64,000 bases of DNA from a virus (taxonomy: Duplodnaviria; Caudoviricetes). Below the pieces are notes generated by a model. It had not been told where the DNA came from, did no database searches, and saw only the letters and a list, made by a program, of their open reading frames with translations. The stretch lies in the IMG/VR virus record IMGVR_UViG_3300028888_000052. One strand, written 5' to 3'. Within the stretch, counting starts at the first letter, position 1, and each line of letters begins with the position of its first letter. Both the position numbers and the translations under genes were made by a program. Shown piece after piece: positions 3,367 through 46,864 of this stretch.

Positions 3367-3372
3367 TCGTTA

Positions 3373-4107
3373 TTAAAATTTATTTGATATGAAAGAATTT
3401 TTTGATAATAAATAATTTTCACTAATTTTATTAGTTTCACCATTTAAATAATCAAAATCCAATTCATATTCTTTATCTAATGTTTCTGAATATAATTTAG
3501 CTTTACCTTTAACATAGTTTAAATCAATTATTTCAGAATCTAAAATATTTTCCTGTGACAACTTAATATTTTCTATTTCTTTTTCTTTCTTACGTGGATA
3601 ATAATTCCAATATTTACTTAAATCTACTTCCCATTTCAATGCCGGTGATTGAACAGAAATAAATTTTGTCATTATTAAACATTTTGATGGTTGCCAATAT
3701 TCTTTATTTGGTATTTCTACAATTATAGCATTACCAATAAAATCATCATAACTATTCACATTATAAATAAATTTATCTTGATTTTTATCAATATATATTT
3801 TATCATCTTTATATTTATTTATAAATGATAAATTATGCATATAATGAGCTTTTTTGTTTTGATATTCTTCATCAAACATAGATTCAAAATGCCCATTATT
3901 GTTTTCTAAATATTCTGATAATATATAATTTTCTTCTAATAATTTTTTAACTTTTAACCATTCTTTAATATACTTTGATAATGCTAAATTATATAATTGC
4001 TTATGTACAATGTTATATTTATTAGATATGAAATCACTAAACTTTACAGGTTTAGTGTCATATAACATATCATTATATTTTTTATTTACAAAACTATTAA
4101 TTATCAT
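3373..4107 (-). CDS. Hypothetical protein in baseplate operon
   Basis: 244-aa ORF tightly packed between structural genes. Confidence 0.7.
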   Translation of the reverse strand: MIINSFVNKKYNDMLYDTKPVKFSDFISNKYNIVHKQLYNLALSKYIKEWLKVKKLLEENYILSEYLENNNGHFESMFDEEYQNKKAHYMHNLSFINKYKDDKIYIDKNQDKFIYNVNSYDDFIGNAIIVEIPNKEYWQPSKCLIMTKFISVQSPALKWEVDLSKYWNYYPRKKEKEIENIKLSQENILDSEIIDLNYVKGKAKLYSETLDKEYELDFDYLNGETNKISENYLLSKNSFISNKF

Positions 4108-21759: not shown

Positions 21760-21790
21760 TATAGCTCAGGTACTAAGTATCTGGGCTATA
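21760..21790 (+). terminator. Stem-loop, possible terminator
   Basis: tatagctcaggtac-taa-gtatctgggctata, 14-bp stem with two G-U pairs. Confidence 0.5.
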
Positions 21791-21831: not shown

Positions 21832-22116
21832 ATGAAAAGTCTTAAAGATATTATAGAAGATAAATCTAAAGTGATTGATATTAATACTTCAGAATATGGT
21901 GTTAAGGTTGTAGACAAATACTTTAAGGAAATAGCTGCACCAGCTATAGAAGAGTGGATGACAAGTGAATATTCAAAGGTACTTCAATCTTGGTTGGAAG
22001 AATGTGCATTCCCAGAGTTTGAAGAATTATTGAAAAAAGAATGTTTTGGTGATCCAGATTATTCAAGAATTTCAGAAGGATTAATTAAAAAGATAAAAAC
22101 TTATACTTTTAGATAA
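21832..22116 (+). CDS. Hypothetical protein with CTS-like leader variant (MKSLKDIIE)
   Basis: ATG at 21832. Confidence 0.65.
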   Translation: MKSLKDIIEDKSKVIDINTSEYGVKVVDKYFKEIAAPAIEEWMTSEYSKVLQSWLEECAFPEFEELLKKECFGDPDYSRISEGLIKKIKTYTFR

Positions 22117-27093: not shown

Positions 27094-27417
27094 ATGAAGA
27101 CTGATATGCAATCTATAGTTGATTTTATACTTAAAGAAGAATTAGTTAAACAATCTTTATATGAACAAAAGGGAGAACCTATTGATGACCAATGGATTCA
27201 AGACGAAAAACCAGTTATGACTAAAGATGGTCGTCAAGCTATTGTAACTAAAGTTGATTATAAAGAAGTACCTAATATTATATATGGTCAAGTCAAGATT
27301 AAAGATGACCTTTTTGAATATGAGTGGTTAGATGATGGTACTTGTCAAAAAGCTTTAGACCAAAGAGGTAATCCTAAAAAACCAGATGAATCTGACAATT
27401 TGGTTAAAGCTAATTAA
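27094..27417 (+). CDS. Hypothetical protein, weak CTS-like N-terminus
   Basis: MQSIVDFILKE; preceded by TTATTTTTA. Confidence 0.65.
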   Translation: MKTDMQSIVDFILKEELVKQSLYEQKGEPIDDQWIQDEKPVMTKDGRQAIVTKVDYKEVPNIIYGQVKIKDDLFEYEWLDDGTCQKALDQRGNPKKPDESDNLVKAN

Positions 27418-32248: not shown

Positions 32249-32713
32249 ATGGATAAGAGATATTCAAATAATATTAAAAATATGAAGCCTAGGAGGGATT
32301 CAAAATACCACCAAGGTTATGTCCCACAACAATTTTGCAAAAAATTATTTGGATCTACTAAAAATGAACCTATAATTTATCGTTCTGGATTAGAATATCA
32401 ATTTATTCAATTTTGTGAGAATAACCCTAAAATCAAGAAATGGGCAAGTGAGCCATTACCAATAGAATATTTCTCAAGATTAGATAATAAATTGTGTAAT
32501 TATTATCCTGATTATGTATTAGAGACTGAAGATGGGTCTCATATTATTGTTGAGATAAAACCATATAACCAAACTGTCAAACCTAAAGATAGTGATTCAA
32601 GATGGTTAAAAGAACAATGGGTGAAAAATACAGATAAATGGAAATATGCTAATGAATTTGCCCATAAACATAATGCTAAATTCATTATAATTACTGAAAA
32701 ATTTTTTAAATAA
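32249..32713 (+). CDS. Head completion nuclease (T4 gp4-like, TnsA-type PD-(D/E)xK)
   Basis: IIYRSGLE, WASEP..I.Y, YYPDY, VEIKP, N.DKW..A..F...IITE motifs. Confidence 0.88.
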   Translation: MDKRYSNNIKNMKPRRDSKYHQGYVPQQFCKKLFGSTKNEPIIYRSGLEYQFIQFCENNPKIKKWASEPLPIEYFSRLDNKLCNYYPDYVLETEDGSHIIVEIKPYNQTVKPKDSDSRWLKEQWVKNTDKWKYANEFAHKHNAKFIIITEKFFK

Positions 32714-32720
32714 ATATATT

Positions 32721-33404
32721 ATGAAAGTAGATATATCAATTTTAATTATTTTATTGAATGATACTGAATTGAATATTTACAAAAATAAAATATTCATTAA
32801 TTATTTTTGTAATTATTTAAAAGCAAATAGTATATTTGAAAATTGTGTATTTATATATAGTGGTGAAGAAAATGAAGCTTTGTTAAATGATTTAAAAATA
32901 GAAAATAAATATCATGTTTATAATATAGATAAAATATCTCATACAACAGAATATCAAGCTGTTGGTGAATATTTAGAAGAAACTAAAAATAAATGTGATT
33001 GGTTTATTAATTTAGATTTAAGTAATTATAATCCAAATACAATCTATTTATCAATATTAAACATAAATGACCATTATGATTTTATTTTCTTTAAGCATGA
33101 AATAATAGATTTATCTAAATATGAATTAAATTCTGATAATAAGAGAAAATATGAATTCTTATATGAAGATAAAAATAAAATGACTATCAATACTTCTTTA
33201 TTTATTACTAAATCTTCATTTTTCAAAGAATGTTATTATAAAGCAAAAAATGATCCTTTTTTATTCAGTGCCTATTTTTGGAAAGGGAAATATAAAGTAT
33301 TAGAAGATAATGGGTCATTTAGTATTCATCTTGCTAATAAACAACAAGTTGATAACTTCTTTCAATTTTTAGTGCAAATACAAAATCAACAATATAATTT
33401 ATGA
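32721..33404 (+). CDS. Possible degenerate nucleotidyltransferase/GT-A fold protein (NeuA-like)
   Basis: Spacing of CDWFINLD and INTSLFI resembles cytidylyltransferases, but the N-terminal PARxxSK motif is missing. Confidence 0.35.
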   Translation: MKVDISILIILLNDTELNIYKNKIFINYFCNYLKANSIFENCVFIYSGEENEALLNDLKIENKYHVYNIDKISHTTEYQAVGEYLEETKNKCDWFINLDLSNYNPNTIYLSILNINDHYDFIFFKHEIIDLSKYELNSDNKRKYEFLYEDKNKMTINTSLFITKSSFFKECYYKAKNDPFLFSAYFWKGKYKVLEDNGSFSIHLANKQQVDNFFQFLVQIQNQQYNL

Positions 33405-33739
33405 AATCAATACAAGAAATAGTTAATGAAGGAAAATCTGGTTCGTTAAAGAAACTTGATATGTTAACAATTATGGTTGCGTATCAAATGTGGAAAGAAT
33501 ATAAGTTGTATGATGAATTCTTTGGAAAATTAGATGAAGAAGAACTTCAAGACTATGATGATCTAAATAAAAGATTAGAACAACTTGATAATGATAATTC
33601 AAGAGTACGTTGGTCTTTACTTAAAGAATATTTTGAAATAATAAATAAGACAGCAGATTATGTATTAAGTTGTCCCGATGATGAATTTTCAAAATCGGAT
33701 AAACGAATTTGGAAAGAGATTAAACAATATGTATCTTAA
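33401..33739 (+). CDS. Putative internal head protein (CTS-like leader MKSIQEIVNE)
   Basis: Leader motif. Confidence 0.65.
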   Translation: MKSIQEIVNEGKSGSLKKLDMLTIMVAYQMWKEYKLYDEFFGKLDEEELQDYDDLNKRLEQLDNDNSRVRWSLLKEYFEIINKTADYVLSCPDDEFSKSDKRIWKEIKQYVS

Positions 33740-33779
33740 TGAATTTTTAGAATTCATAAATATATGTATCTTAAATAAT

Positions 33780-34268
33780 ATGAAAGGCGAGAAAACAATT
33801 TCAATTATAACTCCTGAAGTAGTACAGGAAGGTCCAATGAAAGCTTCAAAAAATATTAAATCAGTATTTTTAGCTGGTACAATAGATAATGGGGATTCAT
33901 TAAATTGGCAAGATAAAGTAATTATTGAATTGATTAACTTAGGCAAATCTTGTAAAATATATAATCCACGTAGAGAACATTGGAATCCTAATCCATCAAA
34001 AGAAGAAATGGAAGCACAAATAAAATGGGAACAAGAAAGTCTTGATAAAGCTAATATTGTTGCAATGGTTTTATTAGATGATTCAAAATCACCAATTAGT
34101 CTTCTTGAAATGGGACTTTATGCTAAATCAGGTAAATTAGTAGTATTTTGTACTCCTAATTTCTATAGATGGGATAATGTAAGATTAACTTGTGAAAAAT
34201 ATAATATAGAGTTAGTTCAAGATATTAATCCATTAGTAATTGCTAATAAAATCATATCAAAACTATAA
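33780..34268 (+). CDS. Nucleoside 2-deoxyribosyltransferase-like protein
   Basis: VFLAGTI, YNPRR, QIKWE, SPISLLEMGL motifs; start re-assigned to ATG 33780. Confidence 0.85.
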   Translation: MKGEKTISIITPEVVQEGPMKASKNIKSVFLAGTIDNGDSLNWQDKVIIELINLGKSCKIYNPRREHWNPNPSKEEMEAQIKWEQESLDKANIVAMVLLDDSKSPISLLEMGLYAKSGKLVVFCTPNFYRWDNVRLTCEKYNIELVQDINPLVIANKIISKL

Positions 34269-34978
34269 TGAAAACTTTAAAAGATACTTTATTTGAAACT
34301 TGTCAATTTTCTCAAATAGGAATTGATGAATCTATGGCTGAACCTAAATCTATATGGGCCGGTAAAGCTGAAGCTAAAATTATTCAAGATAAATTACGAA
34401 ATTTCTTGAAAGGTCAAAAAACTAAAGTTAGTTTGACCAATAAATTAGAATTAGGTAAATTTTTCAAAGCTTTTGTAGCTACTTTAACTTTTGGTAATAC
34501 AGTTAAAAATTTACAAGTTCTTAAAGAATATGGTATGGCTTCAGAACAAGGATTTGCGTCAGTAGTTCTTGGTAATAAAAAAGAATTTGAAGAAAAGAAA
34601 TGGGATACTTCATGTATTAAAAACTTTGATTTATCTGAAATGGAGAAAGAACACCAAAAATGGCAAAAATCAGATGATTATGTAAAAGGTACAGAAGTTG
34701 AAGATGCATCAGATCAAGGGGATTTAGATGATAGAATTCTTATTGTTTATGATAGATGGAATCCTGAAACTGCAGAAGAATTTGATATCGTTGGAAAACG
34801 AGGTAAATCAACAGAACATCATGTTAATATGTGCCGTGTTGAATTTGGTAAAGATTGTGATGTAAAATATTATGATTGTTATCCAATTTTAGCTAAAAAT
34901 TATTTTGGACATCTCGAAGAAATAAAGAAACGTGCTGAACTTGGTATAATGGATATGGCTGCTTATCAACAAATTTAA
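34268..34978 (+). CDS. Putative internal head protein (MKTLKDTLFE)
   Basis: Leader motif. Confidence 0.65.
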   Translation: MKTLKDTLFETCQFSQIGIDESMAEPKSIWAGKAEAKIIQDKLRNFLKGQKTKVSLTNKLELGKFFKAFVATLTFGNTVKNLQVLKEYGMASEQGFASVVLGNKKEFEEKKWDTSCIKNFDLSEMEKEHQKWQKSDDYVKGTEVEDASDQGDLDDRILIVYDRWNPETAEEFDIVGKRGKSTEHHVNMCRVEFGKDCDVKYYDCYPILAKNYFGHLEEIKKRAELGIMDMAAYQQI

Positions 34979-34988
34979 TATATATAAT

Positions 34989-35804
34989 ATGAAAAATCTA
35001 GAAGCTTATATGAAAAACCTCTATATCTCATTAGAAGGTATAGATGAAGAACTTAAAGATAAGATTAAAAATCTTGAAGGATATGAAATAAATGAATGTT
35101 GTGGTTGTGGATGTTGTTGTGAAGACCCATGCCCATGTGAACCTGAATGTAATAAAACTTGTGCAACTGGTTTATCTGGAAGTACAATAACACCACCAAT
35201 TAATCAATTTGGTAGATTTAATTCAGAACAAGAAATAATTAGTTTATTAGATACAGCACCAAAAGTACTTGATCTTGTTGATATACATAGTCAATTTGCA
35301 AGATTCTTACATGTTGAAGATGTCAATAAAGGATATGTTGAACCTCTTTATTTTGGTAACAAAGAAAATGCTTTGATGGGCACTGGTGATTTAGGAGTAG
35401 TTCGTCAAAATGGTGATATGCCAGCACAAGAAGCTAATCCTGAATCTATTGAACAACTTTATGATGTTGCTACTTACCAAAATAAGAAAATATATAAAGC
35501 TGTTAATGATATTGTAAGTACATTTGAATTGAAATGTCCTGTTGTTGAAACAAAAATAAATGGTGAAGTCCAAGTTTATGCTATTAAACATACAGGTTCA
35601 AATGGTAAAGAAGGTAACATTAAAACATCATTAGAAGAAATAGCTAAAGTTCTTGGTAAATTAGAATCTAGAGCTGATGTTAAATGGGCACAAGTATTAG
35701 ATGTTTCTATTGATAATATTGACGACCTTTATGCATTTGTAATTACTTTTACATTCAATATTGATAAAGTAAGAGAACAAATAAAAGCAAATGAAATTAA
35801 ATAA
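34989..35804 (+). CDS. Hypothetical protein with Cys-rich segment and CTS-like leader variant
   Basis: MKNLYISLE; CCGCGCCCEDPCPCEPECNKTC. Confidence 0.7.
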   Translation: MKNLEAYMKNLYISLEGIDEELKDKIKNLEGYEINECCGCGCCCEDPCPCEPECNKTCATGLSGSTITPPINQFGRFNSEQEIISLLDTAPKVLDLVDIHSQFARFLHVEDVNKGYVEPLYFGNKENALMGTGDLGVVRQNGDMPAQEANPESIEQLYDVATYQNKKIYKAVNDIVSTFELKCPVVETKINGEVQVYAIKHTGSNGKEGNIKTSLEEIAKVLGKLESRADVKWAQVLDVSIDNIDDLYAFVITFTFNIDKVREQIKANEIK

Positions 35805-35830
35805 TATATAAAAATTACTATATTATAAAT

Positions 35831-36154
35831 ATGAAAAGCATTTTAAGTAAAATTAATGAAGGTAAATATTGCCGACTTTTTTCTGAAATCCAAAATGAAG
35901 TAGATAATAAAAAAGGTGAATATCATTCATATGATTTTTCAGATGGTCAGAAAAAATATAAGAAAGGATTCTTGACATTTAATGAACAAGATGGATTCTT
36001 TGGTATTGTTGGATTTAATAATGCTAAAGAGTTTGCTGAAATGATGAATGCTGATGAAGATGCATATAAACAATATGATAATATAAAAGTTGGTGGTTGC
36101 ATTGATTGGGGTGAGCAAAATGGAACTACTTCACAAATATTAAGAATTTGGTAA
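35831..36154 (+). CDS. Putative internal head protein (MKSILSKINE)
   Basis: Leader motif. Confidence 0.65.
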   Translation: MKSILSKINEGKYCRLFSEIQNEVDNKKGEYHSYDFSDGQKKYKKGFLTFNEQDGFFGIVGFNNAKEFAEMMNADEDAYKQYDNIKVGGCIDWGEQNGTTSQILRIW

Positions 36155-36157
36155 TAT

Positions 36158-36592
36158 ATGAAAAATTTAAAAGAAAAAATATTTGAATCGTCATTTTCGT
36201 TTTCAGAGACTGAATTTGATAAATCTATAAAAGCTCCTGAAAAGAAAAAGGTTCAGAATGCTATATATAAACAATTAGAGAAGACAAATACAACAGGTCA
36301 TTATTATCATGATGAATCTTGGGAAGGCGTCAAATTAGTCAGAAAAGATATTGAAGATGCATTCAAGACTATAAAGAATCCTGAGCACGAATATGAAGTA
36401 TCTATCGCTCCTGATGAAGGTGGATATCGCACATCAAAAGATGGTATGTCTCAATGGAAACAATATAAAGTTGAGATATTTGTTAAAGGAACTGAGCAAC
36501 CATTTATGGGAGGTACTTTGAACTGTCATGCTGCAGGTACGGTTGATGACCCATTTGATACATATGATATGAGTTGTTGCATAGGTTATTAA
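36158..36592 (+). CDS. Putative internal head protein (MKNLKEKIFE)
   Basis: Leader motif. Confidence 0.65.
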   Translation: MKNLKEKIFESSFSFSETEFDKSIKAPEKKKVQNAIYKQLEKTNTTGHYYHDESWEGVKLVRKDIEDAFKTIKNPEHEYEVSIAPDEGGYRTSKDGMSQWKQYKVEIFVKGTEQPFMGGTLNCHAAGTVDDPFDTYDMSCCIGY

Positions 36593-36610
36593 AATTATAT
36601 AAATAAAGTA

Positions 36611-37387
36611 ATGAAAACTTTAAAAGATCAAATAGTTGAATCTTCATTGATTGAAGAATGTTTAAAAGCTATTAATGAAGGAAAAGACCCTATTAAGCTT
36701 CCATATACATTTGATATTTATAATGAAGGTCCTAAAAACAAAGACTATAAAATAACTAAGTCAAATATTTATAAGATTTTCTTTAGTATAGGTAAATCAG
36801 AAGAATTCAATAAAGAAGATGGTACAAAAGTAGTTAAGTTTGCTGAAAGTCATTCACAAATGATTAGACTTCCTTTACCAGCTGATAGAATTACTTATAA
36901 AGAAGTACCTAACAAAGAAAATACTAAGAATTGGACTGTAGTTCCTGAAATCCGTGAATATACTTGGGCTGGTGCTTGGTATTCTGATAAATTTGTAGAA
37001 TATAACTATAATAAATATAATAATGACTGGAATGAGTGGTTTAAAATGATTAAACCATTTATGAAAGGAAAATTATCGGTTACATTATCAGAAACAGGTG
37101 AAAAGGATCATATTGATTGGAAAATATTAGGTATTACTGTTAATAATGAACAATTCAATAAAGAGCGTGAAGAAAAAATAAAAGAATTGAAAGATCCTAA
37201 ACATCTCGAAGAATGGGCACAAGAAGCGGATGCTAAAGAAAAAGCCGAAATCAAGAAACGTGAAGAAGAGGAAGCAAAAAAGAAGAAAGCTGCCGAAGAA
37301 TGGAAAAAATGGTGGGATTCTTTATCAGATGATGAAAAACTTTCTTGGTCTATGGGATATGGTCAAGGTAAATATCAAGGAGATTAA
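36611..37387 (+). CDS. Putative internal head protein (MKTLKDQIVE)
   Basis: Leader motif plus further LIEE/AINE sites. Confidence 0.65.
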   Translation: MKTLKDQIVESSLIEECLKAINEGKDPIKLPYTFDIYNEGPKNKDYKITKSNIYKIFFSIGKSEEFNKEDGTKVVKFAESHSQMIRLPLPADRITYKEVPNKENTKNWTVVPEIREYTWAGAWYSDKFVEYNYNKYNNDWNEWFKMIKPFMKGKLSVTLSETGEKDHIDWKILGITVNNEQFNKEREEKIKELKDPKHLEEWAQEADAKEKAEIKKREEEEAKKKKAAEEWKKWWDSLSDDEKLSWSMGYGQGKYQGD

Positions 37388-37404
37388 ATATATAATTATT
37401 TATT

Positions 37405-37656
37405 ATGAAAAATATAAAAGAAGTAATTAATGAAACTCTTGAAGGAAATTATGATTATGAAAAAGACTTAAAAACTCCTGAAGGAAAATTAGGAACTGCC
37501 AGAAATAATATTGAACATGAATTAGGTGGTCAAAGATTTTTATTTGAAATATGGGAATGGGTTGATAAAAATGGAAGTAAAGAACTCCAAAAAGAACTTA
37601 TTCAATGTATTAAAGATATTGCAAAAGCAGAAAAAATTAAAATACCTAAAATATGA
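37405..37656 (+). CDS. Putative internal head protein (MKNIKEVINE)
   Basis: Leader motif. Confidence 0.65.
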   Translation: MKNIKEVINETLEGNYDYEKDLKTPEGKLGTARNNIEHELGGQRFLFEIWEWVDKNGSKELQKELIQCIKDIAKAEKIKIPKI

Positions 37657-38123
37657 AAGATATAACATCTTTTATAAATGAGAATAAAGAAATAAAACAC
37701 TATGTTGATGGTATATTAGTCAACAAAGATACTGATGAAATCCTATTACTTCAAAGGGCTGGTTATATCAAGCCCTTTGGAGGTAAATGGGGGTTTGTAG
37801 GTGGGTCAATTGATAAAAATGATAAATCATCAAAAGATGCTTTAATTAGAGAAATTAAAGAAGAGACGGGAATAAAACTATCTTTTAATGAAGAACGTTC
37901 TATGAAGCCTTTTGGAAAACAAGAGCATATGGGAGGTTCAAATGACGAAGAAGTAGTTTCAGATACTGAATATTTTATCATTGAAATGGAAACTAAACCA
38001 GAAGTTAAATTATCAAGAGAGCATTCAAGATATAAATGGTTTGATGAGGAATCTATTAAAGAAAAACAAGGTAAATGTGTTCCTGATGTTTTCCATTATA
38101 TACAAAAATATTATGATAAATAA
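37653..38123 (+). CDS. NUDIX hydrolase with CTS-like leader (MKDITSFINE)
   Basis: WGFVGG...ALIREIKEETGI Nudix box; LSREHSRYKW. Confidence 0.9.
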   Translation: MKDITSFINENKEIKHYVDGILVNKDTDEILLLQRAGYIKPFGGKWGFVGGSIDKNDKSSKDALIREIKEETGIKLSFNEERSMKPFGKQEHMGGSNDEEVVSDTEYFIIEMETKPEVKLSREHSRYKWFDEESIKEKQGKCVPDVFHYIQKYYDK

Positions 38124-38788
38124 TGCCTTTAATTCATAAACCAGAACAAACAACATTAGGACATGTATTTACTCTTAAAGATTTAGATAGAAAGATATAC
38201 TCAGAAGATGAGATAAAATATTTTAAAATATTAAATGCTATTAATGAACATCCTTTAGCAAAAAGACCTACATCTATTCGTTCAAAATTAGCATATAAAG
38301 AATTATTGTCTCTTACAAAACCAACTAAAAAATATCTTCTTCCAGGACAAATAGTATTATTCCATTATTCAGAACCTAAGTTTAAAGAAGAATTAGCATA
38401 TTATGATGCTTCACCATTAACATTATTTTGTGGCATTACAAGAACAGATGATGGTAATATTCGTGAAGTAGGTGTTAATCTTCATTATTATCCACCTTTT
38501 ACTCGTACAAGAATTATTACAGAAATATATCAACATTTCAAACCTTATTTTGATAAAAACTTTAATGAAGTATCAGGTAAACCTAACACTTGGATTTCAT
38601 ATAAAGCTATAAAGCATCTTACAAAAGCTAATCAAAAATTAGGATTTGGAATTAAGATGTATATTCCTGTATTACGTGGGGCATCTTATGTATTACCAAC
38701 TAGATTAGTTCCAACAGCTTGTTTTACTGAAGGTCACTTCTCTAAAGCAACATTACAACAAATATTCCATTTCTGGAGACAATTCTAG
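38123..38788 (+). CDS. DNA end protector protein (T4 gp2-like)
   Basis: PGQIVLFHY.P.FKEELAYYDASPL, GVNLHYYPP..R motifs. Confidence 0.8.
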   Translation: MPLIHKPEQTTLGHVFTLKDLDRKIYSEDEIKYFKILNAINEHPLAKRPTSIRSKLAYKELLSLTKPTKKYLLPGQIVLFHYSEPKFKEELAYYDASPLTLFCGITRTDDGNIREVGVNLHYYPPFTRTRIITEIYQHFKPYFDKNFNEVSGKPNTWISYKAIKHLTKANQKLGFGIKMYIPVLRGASYVLPTRLVPTACFTEGHFSKATLQQIFHFWRQF

Positions 38789-38830
38789 TAAAAGAATTAT
38801 TTTTATATATAAATTGAAATAAATAAAGAT

Positions 38831-39847
38831 ATGAGAAATTTTACACAATTATTTGAATCAGCTAAGACAACTGATAAACAACCAGGAAATGATTTGCAAA
38901 ATACTGGTGTAACTAACCATTATACACCAATAGAAAATGTATTAACAAATATTAAAAATCTTTTCTGTAGTAGATTAGGAGTAGTTGCTTCAATTGGTGA
39001 AGATAATGTTTCAATTAAATTACAAAGTACAAAATTTGTAGATGAACAATCAATTAATGCTGTATTATATGAACAATTAGATAGATTTACTAATTTGGCA
39101 AATTATATAATGCAACAAGGTTTAGATAAGATGACTAAAATAAATCTTGGTATGTATTATGTTGTATATTTTTCACCAAGTGATGTAAAAACTGCTAAAG
39201 ACCCTCAAACTATGGAGCCAAATGCTATTTTAGTTCCTAAAGAAGTTAAAGAATCTATATTAGATGAATTTGAATTCACCACAATAATTAAAGAAGATGA
39301 TGCAGAAGAAGAAATAAAGGATGTTACTTTAGAAAAAGTTCTTGAACTTGTTGATTCAAAAGATAAAGTTAAAGCCGCTAAACAATTAGAATTATTAGTT
39401 GCTCAAGAAATTGAATTACCAAGAGAATTTTATTTTGCCGGCATTAAATTCAAGAATGGTGAAGAAGCTATAGCACTTCGTTGGAAATATACTAAGAAGC
39501 TTCCAACCGGACAATCAACTGAATCTGTACGTTCTATTATGCACATATTTGGTAAAGGAGATAAAGCTATTTGGGTACAAGATTTTGATAAAGAATCTAT
39601 TGTTCAATTACCAGAAGAAGTTAAGAAACTTATTGAATCAATACTTGATATGTTAGAAGCAGACAAGACTGATGATCCAGCTATCTTCAAACTTACAGGT
39701 GAACGTAAAGAACGTGAAGATAATAAGGATAAAAATGAGGAAGATAAAGATAAAGACTCCAAAGATGAAGATTCAAAAGATAAAAACTCAAACAACGATG
39801 ATGATGAGGATGATGATTCAAGAGGAGACAATTCAGATGATGTATAA
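38831..39847 (+). CDS. Putative internal head/scaffold-like protein (MRNFTQLFE) with acidic tail
   Basis: Leader variant, internal VKE/IKE sites, D/K-rich C-terminus. Confidence 0.6.
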   Translation: MRNFTQLFESAKTTDKQPGNDLQNTGVTNHYTPIENVLTNIKNLFCSRLGVVASIGEDNVSIKLQSTKFVDEQSINAVLYEQLDRFTNLANYIMQQGLDKMTKINLGMYYVVYFSPSDVKTAKDPQTMEPNAILVPKEVKESILDEFEFTTIIKEDDAEEEIKDVTLEKVLELVDSKDKVKAAKQLELLVAQEIELPREFYFAGIKFKNGEEAIALRWKYTKKLPTGQSTESVRSIMHIFGKGDKAIWVQDFDKESIVQLPEEVKKLIESILDMLEADKTDDPAIFKLTGERKEREDNKDKNEEDKDKDSKDEDSKDKNSNNDDDEDDDSRGDNSDDV

Positions 39848-39852
39848 ATAAT

Positions 39853-40212
39853 ATGAAAAATATAAAAGATTATATCATTGAAGGTAGAACAATTGATACT
39901 GTTAAAATAAAGACTAAGAAAGGTAAAGAATTAGAACCAGTATGGTATGCTTATGATGAAGAATCATTAGATAATTTATTGAAAAAAGTAAAGTATACAA
40001 GTCAATATTGGATAGATAAAGGTATTTATCTTTCAACATTAAAGAATAAATCTTCTTGGGAAGTTGATACGGATGAAGAATATAAATTCCATATTTATCA
40101 ACCAGGAGCAGATTTCTTCTATTGTGATGATAATGGAGAATCATATACAAGACAAGAGATTTTAGATTTGTTTAATAAAGAAGAAACAATGATAGTTGTA
40201 TTAAATAAATAA
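39853..40212 (+). CDS. Putative internal head protein (MKNIKDYIIE)
   Basis: Leader motif. Confidence 0.65.
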   Translation: MKNIKDYIIEGRTIDTVKIKTKKGKELEPVWYAYDEESLDNLLKKVKYTSQYWIDKGIYLSTLKNKSSWEVDTDEEYKFHIYQPGADFFYCDDNGESYTRQEILDLFNKEETMIVVLNK

Positions 40213-40224
40213 ATTAAATATATA

Positions 40225-40431
40225 ATGAGAAGTTTAACACAAATTATTCAAGAAGCTGCTGAAGGTAGAGAAACATTTGAAGTAGTTTTACCTGATGGAT
40301 TAATGGATAGTTTTTATTATTCTGAAGAAGAAGCACAAAAACGAATTGATGAATTAGTAAAAGCAAATTCTGATGAACATTTCAAACCTACTATCAAAAA
40401 AGGAAACGATAAAGATTATGTTAAAAAATAA
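40225..40431 (+). CDS. Putative internal head protein (MRSLTQIIQE)
   Basis: Leader motif. Confidence 0.6.
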   Translation: MRSLTQIIQEAAEGRETFEVVLPDGLMDSFYYSEEEAQKRIDELVKANSDEHFKPTIKKGNDKDYVKK

Positions 40432-40432
40432 A

Positions 40433-40460
40433 AATTAGAGCTGTTAATTCAGCTCTAATT
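40433..40460. terminator. Bidirectional terminator
   Basis: aattagagctg-ttaatt-cagctctaatt between convergent genes. Confidence 0.8.
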
Positions 40461-41427
40461 CTTTTTTAAAATATTCTATTGTTTTTAATAATCCTTCTTT
40501 TAATTGAATTTTCGGTTTATAACCAAACATACAAAATGCTTTAGCAATATCAGCTTTACGTTGAATAGGATCATCTTTAGGTAATTCTTTATAGATGATT
40601 TTTGATTTATTAGGAATTAATTCTAATACTAATTGAGCTAATTCATTTATAGTAAACTCATTTGGATTACCAATATTTACAGGTCCCATTTCATTATCAA
40701 TTTCCATAAAATCAATTATTCCTTCTATTAAATCATCTATATATTGAAATGACCTTGTTTGATGACCATCACCATAAATAGTTATATCTTTATTTTGTAA
40801 AGCTTGACATATAAAATTTGAAATAACTCTTCCATCATTAGGATCCATGTAAGGACCATAAGTATTGAATATTCTTATAATTTTTGTTTGGACTCCTAAT
40901 TTATTCCATTCATATAAAATAGTTTCGGCAATACGTTTTCCTTCATCATAACATGATCTCGGCCCTAATATATTAACATTACCATTATAATGTTCATTTT
41001 GTGGGTGATGTAATAAATCTGGATTACCGTATACTTCTGATGTTGAAGCATGTAATATTTTACATTGATATCTTTGAGCCACTTTACAAATATTATCTAC
41101 AGCTAATGATACTTTAATTGTGTGTAAAGGATTTTGCATATATTTAGGTGGAGATGCCGGACAAGCTAGATTATAAATTTCATCAACCTTATTATCTAAC
41201 ATTTCGTCTACTAATTCATATATTGTCTTTTCAAAAAAAGATTGGTTTGTAATATCAACAATATAAAAATGATAATTTGGTAATTTTATAAAATTATATA
41301 TATTAGTATTTCTACCAGTTGAAAAATCATCTATACATAATATTTTACAATTACCAATTTCTAATAGTTTCTTAGTTAAGTTTGTACCTATAAACCCCGC
41401 GCCACCAAATATTATTATTGATTTCAT
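40444..41427 (-). CDS. uxs: UDP-glucuronate decarboxylase (UDP-xylose synthase), extended SDR
   Basis: GGAGFIG, YNLACPASP, ASTSEVYG, GPRSCYDEGKR, RIFNTYGP, DGRVISNFI, QTRSFQYIDD, DDPIQRK. Confidence 0.92.
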   Translation of the reverse strand: MKSIIIFGGAGFIGTNLTKKLLEIGNCKILCIDDFSTGRNTNIYNFIKLPNYHFYIVDITNQSFFEKTIYELVDEMLDNKVDEIYNLACPASPPKYMQNPLHTIKVSLAVDNICKVAQRYQCKILHASTSEVYGNPDLLHHPQNEHYNGNVNILGPRSCYDEGKRIAETILYEWNKLGVQTKIIRIFNTYGPYMDPNDGRVISNFICQALQNKDITIYGDGHQTRSFQYIDDLIEGIIDFMEIDNEMGPVNIGNPNEFTINELAQLVLELIPNKSKIIYKELPKDDPIQRKADIAKAFCMFGYKPKIQLKEGLLKTIEYFKKELELN

Positions 41428-41633
41428 TTAATTAAAATATGTTAAATACTATTTTAATAAAAATAATTTATTATTGGTAAATTTTCTGCATATATACCAA
41501 TATTTAGTGTTTAACTTAGAAGAATTACTTATATAAAATATAATAATGCAGATTTGGTTATAGTTTATATAAGATTAGTTCACGAATAACAGTAGTTGTT
41601 CATTTTAAATATACCTAATTTAAACATATAAAA

Positions 41634-42065
41634 ATGAAGAATTTTGATTATTTAACAAAAGAGTTGATTGATACTCTTAGTTTTACTACTATGAATCAGG
41701 ATCGTGAAGCATATTCTGATGTAAATATTAATGGTCGTAATTATGCAATGTTTGGAACTTTGCAAGCTATTACTTTTGTTGGTTTAGTATATGAAGATGC
41801 ATTTGGTAATAAAATAATGCATGTTGGTATTTCAAAACAACACCCAAATGACTCTAAATGTAATAAGCAAATAGCTTATGAAAAAGCCACATTAAAGGCT
41901 ATGGATAACCCAGACATGGTATTTAATACCGTACCAGATAATGTTACAATGTTTAATTTCCGCCACATGATGATGGCTTATTATGATGCTATGGAAGTAC
42001 AATTTATTCGTACTAAGAAGGAAATTGAACTTATGGGAGATGATCCTAAAAAATATAATCGTTAA
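41634..42065 (+). CDS. Conserved phage-type hypothetical protein
   Basis: GISKQHPND..NKQIAY..A pattern. Confidence 0.65.
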   Translation: MKNFDYLTKELIDTLSFTTMNQDREAYSDVNINGRNYAMFGTLQAITFVGLVYEDAFGNKIMHVGISKQHPNDSKCNKQIAYEKATLKAMDNPDMVFNTVPDNVTMFNFRHMMMAYYDAMEVQFIRTKKEIELMGDDPKKYNR

Positions 42066-42071
42066 AAAATA

Positions 42072-42659
42072 ATGGATGAAAATTTAATACATAAATTCGG
42101 TTATGCCGAAATGTATGAATGGGCTAATCCAGAAATGCCTTATGTAGGTAGATTTGTACAATTTAATGGTACTGACAAAATTGAATTATGTAATGATCCA
42201 TATCAAGTTATAGGAGTTACTACAGTTAATAGAGTAGCTCTTTCTGATAACCCAGATGAATGGCCTCATAAATTTATGGGTAATGAGTTTGGAGATACAT
42301 ATGTTCAAAATAAACATGTTGCTAGGGCTGAAAAATTTAAAGATGAACAAGATAATTTTGAGTTTATAAGAACTTTTGAATCATTTGAAAGTAATCCATT
42401 ATTAAGCGAAAATTATAATCAATCTTTAAGTCCTTATGTATCAAGACTTTATAGACAAGAATGGCAACCAGTAACTATTTTAGGAAAATGTATTGTTGAA
42501 GATGATGGAACATTACAACCGGGTATGTATTGTACAGTATATGATGGAGAAGACCAATCCAAGTTTGGTATAGCTATTAAAGCACATAGAGATAGTCAAA
42601 TAAAATATTATGTCATCTCTCGTTATTCTGAAAAAACATGTTTAATCTTATTTAAATGA
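42072..42659 (+). CDS. Stand-alone peptidase G2 / intramolecular-chaperone-like domain
   Basis: YAEMYEW, IGV, EWQPV..LGK..V.DDGT..PG.YC motifs. Confidence 0.75.
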   Translation: MDENLIHKFGYAEMYEWANPEMPYVGRFVQFNGTDKIELCNDPYQVIGVTTVNRVALSDNPDEWPHKFMGNEFGDTYVQNKHVARAEKFKDEQDNFEFIRTFESFESNPLLSENYNQSLSPYVSRLYRQEWQPVTILGKCIVEDDGTLQPGMYCTVYDGEDQSKFGIAIKAHRDSQIKYYVISRYSEKTCLILFK

Positions 42660-43615
42660 AACATAAGTTAAGTATAATTACAACATATTATAATGCTCAA
42701 GACTACATTATAGATAGTATTAGTAGCGTTAATAATCAACAATTTGACCCGGAATTTGTTGAAGTAGAATATGTGTTGGTAAATGACCATACACCAGATC
42801 ATACTGAAGATATAATTAGAGATTATCTTTATCATCAATCTAATCCAAATATCAATTTTAATATGGTAACTACTCCACAAAATTTAGGTTGTGGTGGTGC
42901 AAGAAAATTTGGTATTGATAATGCTTCAGGTGATTATTTGATGTTCTTAGATGCGGATGATTTTTATATTAATGATGATTTTATAAATAGAGCTATTCAT
43001 GATATTGTAGAAAATGATTGTGATTTAGTCGAATATGGATTATTGATGAATTATAAAAATCGTGGTCCTCGAGAAATGAAAGTTTCTGAAAAAATTGTAG
43101 CTGAAAATGACGGAGAAAATTTTGAAGTAATGCTTTTTAAAGAAAACAAGATTAAATTCTTTGTTTGGACTAAGATATTGAAAAAGTCATTATCACAAAC
43201 ATATCCTTATTCAACTAAAAGAACATATGAAGATGTAGAAACTATTCCAGTTTGGTTATCACATGCCAAGAAAATAGTTATTATGCCTTCTATGGAAATT
43301 AATTATAGAGCTACGGAAAATTCTATCATTCGTAATAATATTCTAACAACTAGATTAGATACTATTGGAACTATGATAGAACATTTTGAAAGATTTAAGG
43401 ATAATAGAAATATCTTAAAAGCCATTTATATTAGAGCTTCATTAGATCTTAAAGCTGTTTTATTAAATGGCCATACAAGTGAAGATCCTGGATTTAATCA
43501 AATGTCTAAATATAATACTTATATGTTAAGTTATATTTATCCTGAAAAATATAAAGACTATACATATAATATTGATGTAGAGGAACAAATCCAAAAACAA
43601 TTGATAGAGGAGTAA
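42656..43615 (+). CDS. Glycosyltransferase family 2
   Basis: SIITTYYN, VNDHTPD, N.G.GGAR..GI..ASGDYLMFLDADD, WTKI, YED. Confidence 0.92.
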   Translation: MKHKLSIITTYYNAQDYIIDSISSVNNQQFDPEFVEVEYVLVNDHTPDHTEDIIRDYLYHQSNPNINFNMVTTPQNLGCGGARKFGIDNASGDYLMFLDADDFYINDDFINRAIHDIVENDCDLVEYGLLMNYKNRGPREMKVSEKIVAENDGENFEVMLFKENKIKFFVWTKILKKSLSQTYPYSTKRTYEDVETIPVWLSHAKKIVIMPSMEINYRATENSIIRNNILTTRLDTIGTMIEHFERFKDNRNILKAIYIRASLDLKAVLLNGHTSEDPGFNQMSKYNTYMLSYIYPEKYKDYTYNIDVEEQIQKQLIEE

Positions 43616-43630
43616 TTAAATTACTCCTTT
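43608..43630 (+). terminator. Probable terminator
   Basis: ggagtaat-taa-attactcc followed by T residues. Confidence 0.6.
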
Positions 43631-43672
43631 ATTTGTCTATTTTAGAATATAAATATATGTTAATAAATATTA

Positions 43673-44446
43673 ATGAAGTGTTATAATGCATTTGGCATAA
43701 AGCCTACAAACTCATTTACATCAGCAGGTTCTGATTATTATATTCCAAATTTAACAACACCAACTCAAATACAAAGAGCTTATAAAGCATTTGAAAAATC
43801 TTATAACAAAACTGGTGAAGAAATTAATAGATTAATAAAGAAATTCGAAGCAGTTATTGATGATCAACATCATGCTAATTTACAACATCAAATTCCAAAC
43901 TTGATTCATTTGTATTTGGCATTATATGATCCAAATCTTGAGGAAATAAAGCAACAATCAACTATTCTTGCAATTCATGCATTCATAGATGAATTTGTTA
44001 TTTATGATGAAGAGCAAGATAAGGTTGGTCTTAAGATGTTACTTAATGATACTTTATTTATAAATTCAGGTATTAAAGTTGCATTAGATACAGTTTTATC
44101 AGATAAAAATGACCAAGATGTAGTATCTTTTTTAAGAAAACTTGGTATTGGAGTAGCTGGTTTATATGTTAATAAGTCAGGTAAAGGTAATGCAGGATGG
44201 GATGTTCGTGCATGTCTTGTAGACGAAGATTATGCAGGATTTGTACATCTTTCACAGGCATATACAAAAGAACTTATTGATGAAGGACAAAATATTGTTT
44301 ATTGTGGAGATAAGTTAACACAAATGATGCTTATTCCTGTTTTCCATGATGAATATGTTGATACCGATGAGGATAATTATAATAAAATAATGGCGAATTC
44401 AAAACGAGGAGATAAGGGTTTTGGAAGTCAGGATATTAAACATTAA
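43673..44446 (+). CDS. dut: Trimeric dUTPase with large insertion
   Basis: SAGSD, KSG, LVDEDYAG, GDKLTQ, KRGDKGFGS (motifs I-V). Confidence 0.85.
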   Translation: MKCYNAFGIKPTNSFTSAGSDYYIPNLTTPTQIQRAYKAFEKSYNKTGEEINRLIKKFEAVIDDQHHANLQHQIPNLIHLYLALYDPNLEEIKQQSTILAIHAFIDEFVIYDEEQDKVGLKMLLNDTLFINSGIKVALDTVLSDKNDQDVVSFLRKLGIGVAGLYVNKSGKGNAGWDVRACLVDEDYAGFVHLSQAYTKELIDEGQNIVYCGDKLTQMMLIPVFHDEYVDTDEDNYNKIMANSKRGDKGFGSQDIKH

Positions 44447-44448
44447 TT

Positions 44449-44778
44449 ATGGCCAAAAAGAAAATTTATATATCTTTACCAATTGCATTTCAAGAAGATA
44501 CCGTTTATAAACGTAATGAATGTGCAAAGACGTATTTAGAGATGAAATATCCAAAATATGATTATGTTTCTCCAATAGATGCTAATCATATTGATGATGA
44601 AGCTTTAGGTAATCATTTGGCTATTGAACGTACAGCATATTACATGGGTAAAGATATTGAACAAGTTATTTTATGTGACGCTATACTTATGTGTCCTGGA
44701 TGGGAAAATTCAAAGGGATGTAAAGTAGAAAAGTTTACAGCAGAAACTTATGGAAAAGAAGTTTTATATCTTAAATAA
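44449..44778 (+). CDS. DUF4406 / nucleoside deoxyribosyltransferase-like protein
   Basis: IYISLPI, YMGKDI, CDAILMCPGWENSKGCKVE. Confidence 0.85.
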   Translation: MAKKKIYISLPIAFQEDTVYKRNECAKTYLEMKYPKYDYVSPIDANHIDDEALGNHLAIERTAYYMGKDIEQVILCDAILMCPGWENSKGCKVEKFTAETYGKEVLYLK

Positions 44779-44806
44779 AAAGGAAGTAGCTTAAGCTACT
44801 TCCTTT
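44779..44806. terminator. Bidirectional terminator
   Basis: aaaggaagtagc-ttaa-gctacttccttt. Confidence 0.85.
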
Positions 44807-44808
44807 AT

Positions 44809-45210
44809 TTATTTTCCTACATAAATCATTTCATCAGTAGTTGAATTATCATGTAAAATCTTATCTGTTGCACTAAGTATAAAACCATATTCATCACTTG
44901 AATCAATAAGAACTTTAGCTTTCTTTATTTCATCTTCATAACTATTATACTTGTCATCATCAACAATAGCATAATTCTTGATAATTCTCTTGTTATAATC
45001 ACCATTAATAAGATCATGTTCACCAGCCCTAGTCATGATAATATCAACATCTGTATAATTATGGTCTTTCATCCATTTCTCTATAGCTTCAAAAAAACCA
45101 TCCATATCATTTTCTTGATAATAATTAGGGTCATTAAAATGTAACTTACAAATTTTCTTAAGACCAGTTAATTTTGAACCTTCGAATATAAAATTAGTAA
45201 TGTCTTTCAT
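44809..45210 (-). CDS. Putative internal head protein (MKDITNFIFE)
   Basis: Leader motif. Confidence 0.65.
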   Translation of the reverse strand: MKDITNFIFEGSKLTGLKKICKLHFNDPNYYQENDMDGFFEAIEKWMKDHNYTDVDIIMTRAGEHDLINGDYNKRIIKNYAIVDDDKYNSYEDEIKKAKVLIDSSDEYGFILSATDKILHDNSTTDEMIYVGK

Positions 45211-45226
45211 TGTTTTTATTTATTAT

Positions 45227-46864
45227 TTATTTATCTATTTCGTTATCTGCTATAATATAATCATCCAATGAGATGCTTTCGAGAACTATATCACGTTTCT
45301 TAGCTTCATCTTCAATTTTTTTCATTTCAGCTTCATAACCAAGTTCTTTACAAACTTTATAGTTCATCTTAAGTTTTGCATCAGAACAATTAGAAAGATT
45401 TTGTTTACGAGTACCTTCATGCCATGCTTTCATTTTATCATAAGCAGCTGCATTAGCACCTTTACTCATTTTTGTATCTTTACCACGTTCTTTCTTTTCT
45501 TTTGGTTCTGGGTTTTCAAGTGGTTTTTCAATTGGTTCTGCATCAGGTTCCATGTCACCTTCAACATATGTTTGTACTAATGAAAGAGAATATGTAAACA
45601 GATTTTTCTTTTCATATCCTTCATAGTTGAAATCCATGTCTTTGACTAATTTTTCAAAATTTTTCTTTGCTTCTTCTTTAGCTTGTCCTTTTGTCTTTGA
45701 ATGATTTCCCCAATAACCAGCTGAATCATCATAGATTTTTTCCCAATGATTTTTTACATATTCACTTTGTTTTCTTGCATTTGCTTTATGCCAAGCTTCA
45801 GAAACTTTCTTAAATAATTCAATCATTTTTTCAGATGCTTTATCCTTATAAATTGAAATTGCATCATCAAGTTGCATATCAATATTACCATCAAGAACTT
45901 TTCTATCACCTGTATGTATGATAACAAATTGTTTTTTCTTTGTATCTATAGCTAATGCCCTATATCCATAATCTTTCTTTCCACGCATATACTGTTTATC
46001 ATAAACAAATGCGCCAGATAATCCAGAAAGTGATTTCAAATCTTTAGTCTTGAATACTTCTTGTAATTTATTAAAAAGAACTGGTTCAAGAACGCTCATT
46101 ATTAAAGATCTAAATTCCTTATATCCATTAGAAACAGCATCATTTAATTTCTGGTATTCAGGATTGTTCTTAGTTTCTTCATCCCAAGATTTTAAGTTAT
46201 TTTGCTTAAGCCATGCAGAACGTTTGTCTTCAAGTTCTTTAATTGATGCATTAGTAAGATTCCAATAGCGAACTGTAAATTTGCCATCAATTATATCCCA
46301 TGACAAATGATCAGGTACAGCAACATAACGGGCATCAAACTCATCTTTCTTATTTTGTATCTTTTCAGCCTTTTGGTCATCATAAGCTTTAGCATCCTTA
46401 TCTCCTTTTTCCGCTAATTCTTTGAACTTACCATCTTTGTCATCATATTTACTCCAATATTTAGCAATATAATCTTCAAGATAATAACCTGCTTTGATAT
46501 CAGCAATACAACCAGTATTACTTCCATTAGACATAATAGCTATCCAACCATGAACATGGAAGTCATCTTTACCATTAGCTTTCTTAATAGTTACATAATA
46601 ATCATGTGAGCCACCAGCAATAGCACCAGCATCACCAGCTCTGTCAGAAGTAATAACATCATATACATGACCTTGCTTGTCTTTTATATAGCCATTACCT
46701 GAACCATCAAAATATGAGAACTCATCATCATATCCAGGATCTTTAGTGTCAAACATATCACCACCCCTGAAATGAACAGTCTCTTTACGTTCAGTTCTTT
46801 TATACTTTTTAAGATCAGATGGCTTACCCGATGCTTCAAATATTTTTAATAAAATATCTTTCAT
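45227..46864 (-). CDS. Putative large internal head protein (MKDILLKIFE), Lys-rich
   Basis: Leader motif; further VLE site near the C-terminus. Confidence 0.65.
   Translation of the reverse strand: MKDILLKIFEASGKPSDLKKYKRTERKETVHFRGGDMFDTKDPGYDDEFSYFDGSGNGYIKDKQGHVYDVITSDRAGDAGAIAGGSHDYYVTIKKANGKDDFHVHGWIAIMSNGSNTGCIADIKAGYYLEDYIAKYWSKYDDKDGKFKELAEKGDKDAKAYDDQKAEKIQNKKDEFDARYVAVPDHLSWDIIDGKFTVRYWNLTNASIKELEDKRSAWLKQNNLKSWDEETKNNPEYQKLNDAVSNGYKEFRSLIMSVLEPVLFNKLQEVFKTKDLKSLSGLSGAFVYDKQYMRGKKDYGYRALAIDTKKKQFVIIHTGDRKVLDGNIDMQLDDAISIYKDKASEKMIELFKKVSEAWHKANARKQSEYVKNHWEKIYDDSAGYWGNHSKTKGQAKEEAKKNFEKLVKDMDFNYEGYEKKNLFTYSLSLVQTYVEGDMEPDAEPIEKPLENPEPKEKKERGKDTKMSKGANAAAYDKMKAWHEGTRKQNLSNCSDAKLKMNYKVCKELGYEAEMKKIEDEAKKRDIVLESISLDDYIIADNEIDK

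Follow-up and report, generated by a model that had tools for sequence, protein, structure and literature searches.

The DNA analysed here is a 64,000-nucleotide stretch of a tailed-phage genome (Duplodnaviria; Caudoviricetes; IMG/VR record IMGVR_UViG_3300028888_000052), which we call the window. It is AT-rich, with ~28% GC, and between positions 33401 and 46864 it carries a cluster of genes whose otherwise dissimilar products begin with the same kind of ten-residue peptide, ending in Glu and resembling the capsid-targeting sequence (CTS) of phage T4; we refer to this peptide as the tag and to the proteins that bear it as cargo. The genes of the locus, together with two outlying carriers of tag variants, are listed below with the tag up to its Glu and the residue that follows. 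G001 and G002 are two of the related contigs introduced further on, and framework genes are those common to the window and both of them.

32249..32713, + strand: gp4-like head completion (head closure) gene, untagged, which opens the locus (phrog_218, E 1.5e-34; 73-81% identity in G001 and G002)
33401..33739, + strand: tagged open reading frame (ORF) of 112 amino acids (aa), MKSIQEIVNE then G, orphan cargo with no Pfam or PHROG match above threshold
34268..34978, + strand: tagged ORF, 236 aa, MKTLKDTLFE then T, orphan cargo without a homologue at the corresponding loci of G001 and G002
34989..35804, + strand: 271-aa framework gene whose tag variant is longer, ..YISLE16 then G (equal to Glu9 when counted from Met8)
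35831..36154, + strand: tagged ORF, 107 aa, MKSILSKINE then G, orphan cargo
36158..36592, + strand: tagged ORF, 144 aa, MKNLKEKIFE then S; the tag is also on the G002 orthologue (81%)
36611..37387, + strand: tagged ORF, 258 aa, MKTLKDQIVE then S, with a Lys/Glu-rich C-terminus
37405..37656, + strand: tagged ORF, 83 aa, MKNIKEVINE then T
37653..38123, + strand: tagged NUDIX hydrolase, 156 aa, MKDITSFINE then N (PF00293, E 5.8e-17)
38123..38788, + strand: gp2-like DNA end protector, an untagged framework gene (phrog_429, E 1.7e-16; PF26869, Phage_T4_gp2)
38831..39847, + strand: tagged ORF, 338 aa, Glu9 variant MRNFTQLFE then S, with an acidic C-terminal tail
39853..40212, + strand: tagged ORF, 119 aa, MKNIKDYIIE then G; the tag is also on the G001 homologue (40%)
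40225..40431, + strand: tagged ORF, 68 aa, MRSLTQIIQE then A
44809..45210, - strand: tagged ORF, 133 aa, MKDITNFIFE then G
45227..46864, - strand: tagged ORF, 545 aa, MKDILLKIFE then A, the largest cargo protein (304 homologues)
21832..22116, + strand: outlying Glu9 variant, 94 aa, MKSLKDIIE
27094..27417, + strand: outlying extended variant, 107 aa, ..IVDFILKE15 then E, with the canonical ten-residue tag in the G001 and G002 orthologues

A preliminary description of this DNA had quoted eleven N-termini with a Glu10 leader, and all eleven were found at their coordinates and strands. It proved equally accurate on the Glu9 variants at 38831, 21832 and 34989 (the last from its second Met), on the gp4-like gene before the cluster and the gp2-like gene within it, and on the small genes at 47-52 kb, among which we found no tagged ORF. 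The start codons and lengths of the window genes match independent gene calls by the Joint Genome Institute on a 137-kb contig with identical genes. For all counts we used the strict pattern ^M[KR].[ILVM]...[ILVMF].E, in which position 7 is left free. The enrichment that the same description had proposed to check was evident: the pattern begins 11 of the 74 window ORFs compared with 1 of 355 internal Met positions, and the eleven ORFs lie within 21 consecutive genes (permutation P ~1e-5). Three to four further window ORFs have length variants of the tag; the 64 kb thus hold 11-15 tagged ORFs, depending on whether variants are counted. Without any pattern, the frequency of Glu along the window N-termini has its only maximum at residue 10 (0.23, as against 0.01-0.15 elsewhere). 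One candidate, the ORF at 41634 (MKNFDYLTKE), was dropped, as it has Thr at position 8 and its G002 orthologue lacks Glu10. A megablast search of the tagged locus against 50,697 phage records gave no DNA match.

Relatives were IMG/VR contigs from ruminant and gut samples, reached via the gp2-like and portal proteins, and four of them were read fully and scanned in the same way:

G001: 163 kb, 35 strict-tag ORFs among 233 ORFs
G002: 158 kb, 33 strict-tag ORFs among 207 ORFs
G003: 236 kb, 25 strict-tag ORFs among 303 ORFs
G004 (97% complete by CheckV): 410 kb, 80 strict-tag ORFs among 511 ORFs

Pooled over the window and these four relatives, the strict tag begins 184 of 1,328 ORFs, as against 11 matches among 5,906 internal Met. 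Residue 10 is the sole peak of Glu frequency in every one of the five (0.14-0.25), with values elsewhere of at most 0.11 in the relatives and at most 0.15 in the window. Among 28 further portal-linked loci of the clade, 23 have at least one tagged ORF, and tagged clusters in the relatives occur at several places and on both strands. The shared N-terminus is highly non-random, and the tag is a clade-wide feature. Among the closest relatives that are named or in culture, we found no tag in the sampled parts of Tenacibaculum phage PTm1 (84 ORFs, head module included), nor in those of the huge phage LR756500 (38 ORFs) and of Prevotella phage Lak-B4 (45 ORFs), and the literature that we searched holds no description of such a tag in rumen, PAU-like, PTm1-like or Lak phages.

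The consensus of the tag in the clade is M-K-x-[L/I]-x-x-[Y/I/F]-[I/L]-x-E. When ORFs are picked by Glu10 alone, hydrophobic residues occupy positions 4, 7 and 8 in 0.86, 0.79 and 0.83 of cases against a background of ~0.45, and are depleted at positions 2, 3, 5 and 6. In T4, the first ten residues of the internal protein IPIII, MKTYQEFIAE, suffice for packaging (PMC9026906; the string is also given in 10.1101/2021.01.19.427310), and mutagenesis assigned residues 4 and 7 to targeting and residues 8 and 10 to processing by gp21, which cleaves after L/I-x-E (PMC9026906). The clade consensus agrees with the IPIII signal at all four of these functional positions. The selected feature might in principle lie in the nucleotides, as an AT-rich start that aids translation in a host that does not use Shine-Dalgarno sequences or as a cassette recombination sequence, with no functional peptide at all; the tag codons are indeed very AT-rich, MK starts are common genome-wide and the cassettes turn over, but Leu4 is encoded by TTA, CTT, CTA or TTG or replaced by Ile, Glu10 by GAA or GAG, and Ile and Lys by several codons each. 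Since the Leu, Ile, Lys and Glu codons of the tag vary in this way, conservation acts at the peptide level; moreover, the intervening residues are free, orthologues move the Glu between positions 9 and 11 with h-x-E (h, hydrophobic) kept, and the highly expressed structural genes are untagged. We therefore hold this nucleotide-level explanation to be very improbable, although a recombination role could exist alongside the peptide role.

The preliminary description had further claimed that the tag is portable, carried by proteins that have nothing else in common, and this held true. With the first ten residues removed, BLASTP sorts the 79 tagged proteins encoded by the window, G001 and G002 into 46 clusters, and where a fold is recognised the folds are unrelated; a single paralogous family is thereby ruled out. 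The tag lies outside the recognised domain in every case: NUDIX spans residues 20-138 in the window ORF at 37653, a HAD hydrolase domain starts at residue 22, AAA_5 at residue 71 and DUF285 (BspA-like repeats) at about residue 113. In the AlphaFold2 (AF2) models the tag falls within a disordered N-terminal segment, which extends over residues 1-57 in the 545-aa protein and over residues 1-30 in the 338-aa one. The portal, sheath, tube, capsid and terminase genes are all untagged, which rules out that late or highly expressed genes bear the tag as a matter of course.

The tag is also maintained among homologues of a given cargo. Of the 120 listed from the 304 homologues of the 545-aa protein, 102 have Glu10 and 14 the shorter Glu9 form, and those listed begin with MK.I...IFEAS or with a form one residue shorter. 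In 120 homologues of the 338-aa protein the Glu stands at residue 9, 10 or 11; it invariably closes an h-x-E and precedes a small residue. Length variants of this kind are present on almost every homologue that misses the strict pattern, one example being MKKFGEFILES on the NUDIX protein of G004. The NUDIX orthologues in G001-G004 all bear the tag or a variant of it, and the orthologues of the 271-aa protein at 34989 in G001 (77%) and G002 (57%) keep ..ISLEG or ..VSLNG. In the same gene (34989-35804, + strand), a Cys-rich stretch, CCGCGCCCEDPCPCEPEC, lies downstream of a coiled N-terminal part and is kept in the orthologues.

Pfam and PHROGs scans of the window cargo recognised the NUDIX hydrolase only, the remaining tagged ORFs being orphans. 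Its catalytic R-E-x-x-E-E-x-G motif is present as REIKEETGI, and the nearest solved structures are generic MutT/NUDIX proteins (E 1e-7), which do not indicate a substrate; the gene overlaps the preceding one by 4 nt at its start and the gp2 gene by 1 nt at its end. Structure prediction, which the preliminary description had proposed for the mature proteins, was carried out for the 545-aa and 338-aa proteins and gave models of both but a significant fold match for neither. For the AF2 model of the 545-aa protein (predicted local distance difference test score, pLDDT, 71), Foldseek found nothing at E <= 0.1 and VIA reached at most Z 6.2, over short helical segments only; the ESM Atlas gave no usable match. 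The model of the 338-aa protein (pLDDT 66) likewise had no significant match; weak PC4/Pur-alpha-like rows (E ~0.1, probability 0.3-0.44) and generic alpha/beta folds (Z <= 6.3) were not used to assign a function.

Two further kinds of cargo occur in the relatives. Tandem arrays of DUF285 (BspA-like leucine-rich repeat) genes, which are not found in the window, number 20 clustered genes in G001 and G002 together and ~45 in G004; all of these paralogues are tagged and continue into a conserved linker (EKLQIGSKTK, EKFRLSKDN or EGLRINKNT), and in some the tag is doubled (MKKLNHYISEAERIPRLHGYITEK..). The tag or a variant is also present on an AAA_5 (MoxR/dynein-type) ATPase, 411-465 aa long, encoded in G004 (L059:3965-5266), G002 (L018:3333-4730) and G003 (2718-3953); the G004 gene is located in the neck and head module.

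The head genes of the clade are of T4 type, with a portal of family PF07230 in G001 and G002 (E 6.6e-86) and a gp23-family capsid protein (PF07068). In G004 and two further relatives, L095 and L091, we found a 525-566-aa protein that joins an N-terminal Peptidase S77 domain (the family of the T4 prohead protease gp21; PF03420, E 1.6e-11) to a C-terminal acidic scaffold:

L060:2910-4607 (= G004 82910-84607): protease-scaffold fusion
L095:8179-9879: protease-scaffold fusion
L091:8334-9911: protease-scaffold fusion

The scaffold part contains 8-10 tandem 12-residue repeats, W-[VI]-x-E-[EQN]-[FY]-[AS]-P-E-V-Q-[NK], or in brief W-[V/I]-x-E-E-F-A-P-E-V-Q-N, and each repeat includes a candidate cleavage site. 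Observed and expected numbers of [IL]-x-E or [ILV]-x-E in the three fusions are 25 vs 9.9, 36 vs 16.9 and 29 vs 13.6, so that [ILV]-x-E is enriched ~2.1-2.5-fold in the clade scaffolds. The final four residues of the tag, [Y/F/I]-I-x-E, form the same kind of site as these repeats. Across 83 distinct sequences, the capsid protein N-terminus conserves ..LLTE.. and ..AIHEIHE followed by S, after which comes a hypervariable linker; a propeptide that is removed would be expected to look like this, and we read it as a candidate one. The protease-scaffold gene of G004 (82910-84607) is immediately preceded, on its own strand, by at least 20 tagged ORFs (63.5-82.1 kb) and is followed by the capsid gene (84744-86540), then by the sheath and tube genes. 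PTm1 encodes the same protease-scaffold fusion with a degenerate version of the repeats.

Taken together, these observations lead us to interpret the tag as a T4-type capsid-targeting and processing signal that loads diverse proteins into the prohead, a reading to which we assign a probability of about 0.7 on the basis of sequence comparison. The preliminary description had offered the same reading, and those of its expectations that sequence can address were all borne out. We envision that, late in infection, the tagged proteins would bind the prohead scaffolding core through a short amphipathic N-terminal helix, and that the scaffold-fused gp21-family (S77) prohead protease would then cut after Glu10, with the [I/L/V]-x-E specificity that it would also show on the scaffold repeats and the capsid propeptide. 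The mature cargo would stay in the head alongside the DNA and enter the host at infection. Of this sequence of events, we infer scaffold binding, cleavage at residue 10 and virion retention, as well as ejection and an early or anti-defence role, the last two by analogy with the T4 internal proteins.

Several results weigh against this interpretation. The protease-scaffold and capsid genes were found only in G004, L095 and L091, whose portal is ~70% identical; neither a capsid gene nor a true protease gene was detected in the window or in G001-G003, all of which are fragments, by gp23 and S77 family searches or by tblastn with the head proteins of PTm1 and G004. The only S77 member in G001 is a 143-aa paralogue at L006:18644-19075 on the - strand (= G001 58644-59075), with an intact GELNHP, which lies among small early-looking genes far from the head genes. 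The window shows no enrichment of the T4 late-promoter box TATAAATA (35 occurrences, 31.7 expected); the k-mers overrepresented before tagged genes came mainly from the tandem DUF285 paralogues and were uninformative. As PTm1 shares the fused protease-scaffold and, like LR756500 and Lak-B4, shows no tag in the parts sampled, the tag is not required by a head of this type. Finally, the tag is found on 8-16% of all ORFs, including the ~45 DUF285 paralogues of G004, which is beyond any known packaged repertoire, and some tagged proteins may therefore have another fate.

Two of these points, the tagging of as many as 16% of ORFs, for which packaging signals offer no precedent, and the untagged PTm1 with its similar head module, together with the scatter of tagged clusters over several sites and both strands in the relatives, would also suit a tag that serves as some other signal, be it a docking helix for a chaperone, a degron or an address for another virion part or a host structure, its likeness to T4 being convergent. 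We regard this as quite unlikely, given that all four T4 functional positions are matched and the P3/P1 motif is shared with the clade scaffold repeats and capsid propeptide, that the tagged genes of G004 adjoin the protease-scaffold and capsid genes, and that the tag has no hydrophobic stretch of the kind suited to secretion.

The composition of the mature cargo bears on what would happen once it is inside the prohead. In mature cargo other than DUF285 proteins, the ratio of observed to expected [IL]-x-E is 0.98, compared with 1.19 in untagged proteins, and the same cargo has ratios of 1.27 for [IL]-x-D and 1.22 for [IL]-x-K. The deficit amounts to ~50 sites, or ~3 standard deviations by a rough hand Poisson estimate, and suggests a mild avoidance of internal cleavage sites. 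This matters for the possibility that the tag is a genuine prohead tag and most of the cargo an assembly-phase core, degraded, expelled or left as inert DNA-packing material, and not effectors. T4 provides a model in gp22, gp67 and gp68, which are cut into peptides that exit the head (PMC9026906), and the charged low-complexity tails of the 338-aa and 258-aa cargo would fit such a role, as would the likeness of the 94-aa ORF at 21832 to the scaffold repeats. Against a core stand the intact enzymes (NUDIX, HAD, AAA+) and folded repeat proteins within the cargo, the lack of [IL]-x-E enrichment in the mature cargo by comparison with the scaffold (>2), and the fast turnover of the cassettes, which suits host-interaction genes better than structural ones; overall, we think it unlikely that most cargo is core material.

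The 94-aa ORF itself (21832-22116), which lies among early-looking genes, contains two units (..EEWMTSEYS..SWLEECAFPEFEE..) that resemble the W-[VI]-x-E-E-F-A-P-E repeats of the clade scaffold. It matches the scaffold part of the G004 protease-scaffold by tblastn (E 8e-5), and its G001 orthologue is untagged. From this resemblance, the ORF could be a mini-scaffold or a competitor.

The turnover just mentioned can be seen from the arrangement of the locus. The gp4 gene, the 271-aa gene, the tagged NUDIX gene, the gp2 gene, the 338-aa gene, the epimerase gene and others form a framework common to the window, G001 and G002, and the 338-aa gene, with 544 homologues, adjoins gp2 across the clade. 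The tagged cassettes between the framework genes differ: for six of those in the window, neither G001 nor G002 has a homologue at this place, and both relatives carry private cassettes as well. The ORF at 33401 has a G001 homologue that retains the tag at 21760, away from the locus. To judge from this gene order, the window locus is most likely a hot spot between the gp4-like and gp2-like genes at which tagged cassettes are exchanged among related phages.

The cluster also includes other genes. Two untagged ones with nucleoside 2-deoxyribosyltransferase-like domains (PF15891, DUF4406) lie at 33729-34268 (+ strand) and 44449-44778 (+ strand), and the interval 40444-43615 holds the epimerase, a glycosyltransferase and a Peptidase_G2-like gene. 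Beyond the cluster, positions 53375-63355 (+ strand) form a single ORF of 3,326 aa, whose G004 counterpart of 3,234 aa comes right after the sheath and tube genes.

Going beyond packaging as such, we tentatively propose, at somewhat less than even odds, that a clade of rumen and gut jumbo phages (~160-410 kb) has turned a T4-style tag into a general delivery system by which up to ~80 proteins per genome would be injected. The cargo so delivered would comprise enzymes (NUDIX, HAD and AAA+) and large DUF285 arrays, drawn from fast-evolving cassette hot spots; this extension, too, is possible rather than probable. The T4 address tag delivers ready-made proteins that are active before any phage gene is read. 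If the same were true here, a ten-residue motif would reveal the pre-loaded arsenal of an uncultured group of rumen and gut phages, each genome supplying dozens of candidates for anti-defence or host takeover, hardly any of them with a recognised fold. As a set of effectors delivered by the virion it would be larger than that of any phage known so far, and it would provide a list of proteins for screening against Bacteroidota defence systems. The tag might also be of use in engineering phages of gut anaerobes, as a packaging handle that can be moved between proteins.

The closest known counterpart is the T4 CTS, which is borne by IPI, IPII, IPIII and Alt and removed by the prohead protease gp21 (Mullaney and Black; PMC9026906, PMC3012670). 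As here, it is a ten-residue tag that begins with MK, is hydrophobic at positions 4 and 7, has [I/L] at position 8 and Glu at position 10, and is followed by a small residue; and as here, it sits on unrelated proteins of a phage with gp2- and gp4-type genes, to which relatives of the present phage add gp20-, gp23- and gp21-type ones. It differs in extent, T4 having three internal proteins and Alt as against 11-15 tagged ORFs in the 64-kb window and 25-80 per related contig. Some of the present cargo, moreover, can be recognised as enzymes or belongs to large DUF285 arrays, and in the relatives protease and scaffold form a single protein. The polymorphic ip loci of the T-even phages (Repoila et al. 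1994, via PMC12373910) encode unrelated proteins with only the leader in common (PMC3012670; PMC12373910). Each of Ip1-3 inhibits a different type IV restriction enzyme of the GmrSD kind. The three internal proteins of T4 are all known to disable particular restriction enzymes directed at modified DNA (PMC12373910). There, too, unrelated genes that share a leader are swapped between conserved flanking genes; however, at least ten Ips are reported over all T-evens, and here a single locus has that many. In the giant phages phiKZ, 201phi2-1 and SPN3US, tens of head proteins are cut after Glu by a diverged gp21-type protease, and many of them are thought to be ejected (PMC9026906, PMC5694885, PMC10052503). 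These phages resemble the present clade in their large heads and many different Glu-cleaved proteins, but their propeptides are long and dissimilar, with S/A-x-E sites and no uniform portable decapeptide, and their portal and capsid have no sequence kinship to those of the clade. The principle is thus known from T4 and the T-even ip loci; new here are the scale, a cargo of enzymes and repeat proteins, the protease-scaffold fusion with its tandem site repeats and the host group, and we find no described precedent in these systems for such a scale, for enzymes as cargo or for tagged arrays of repeat proteins.

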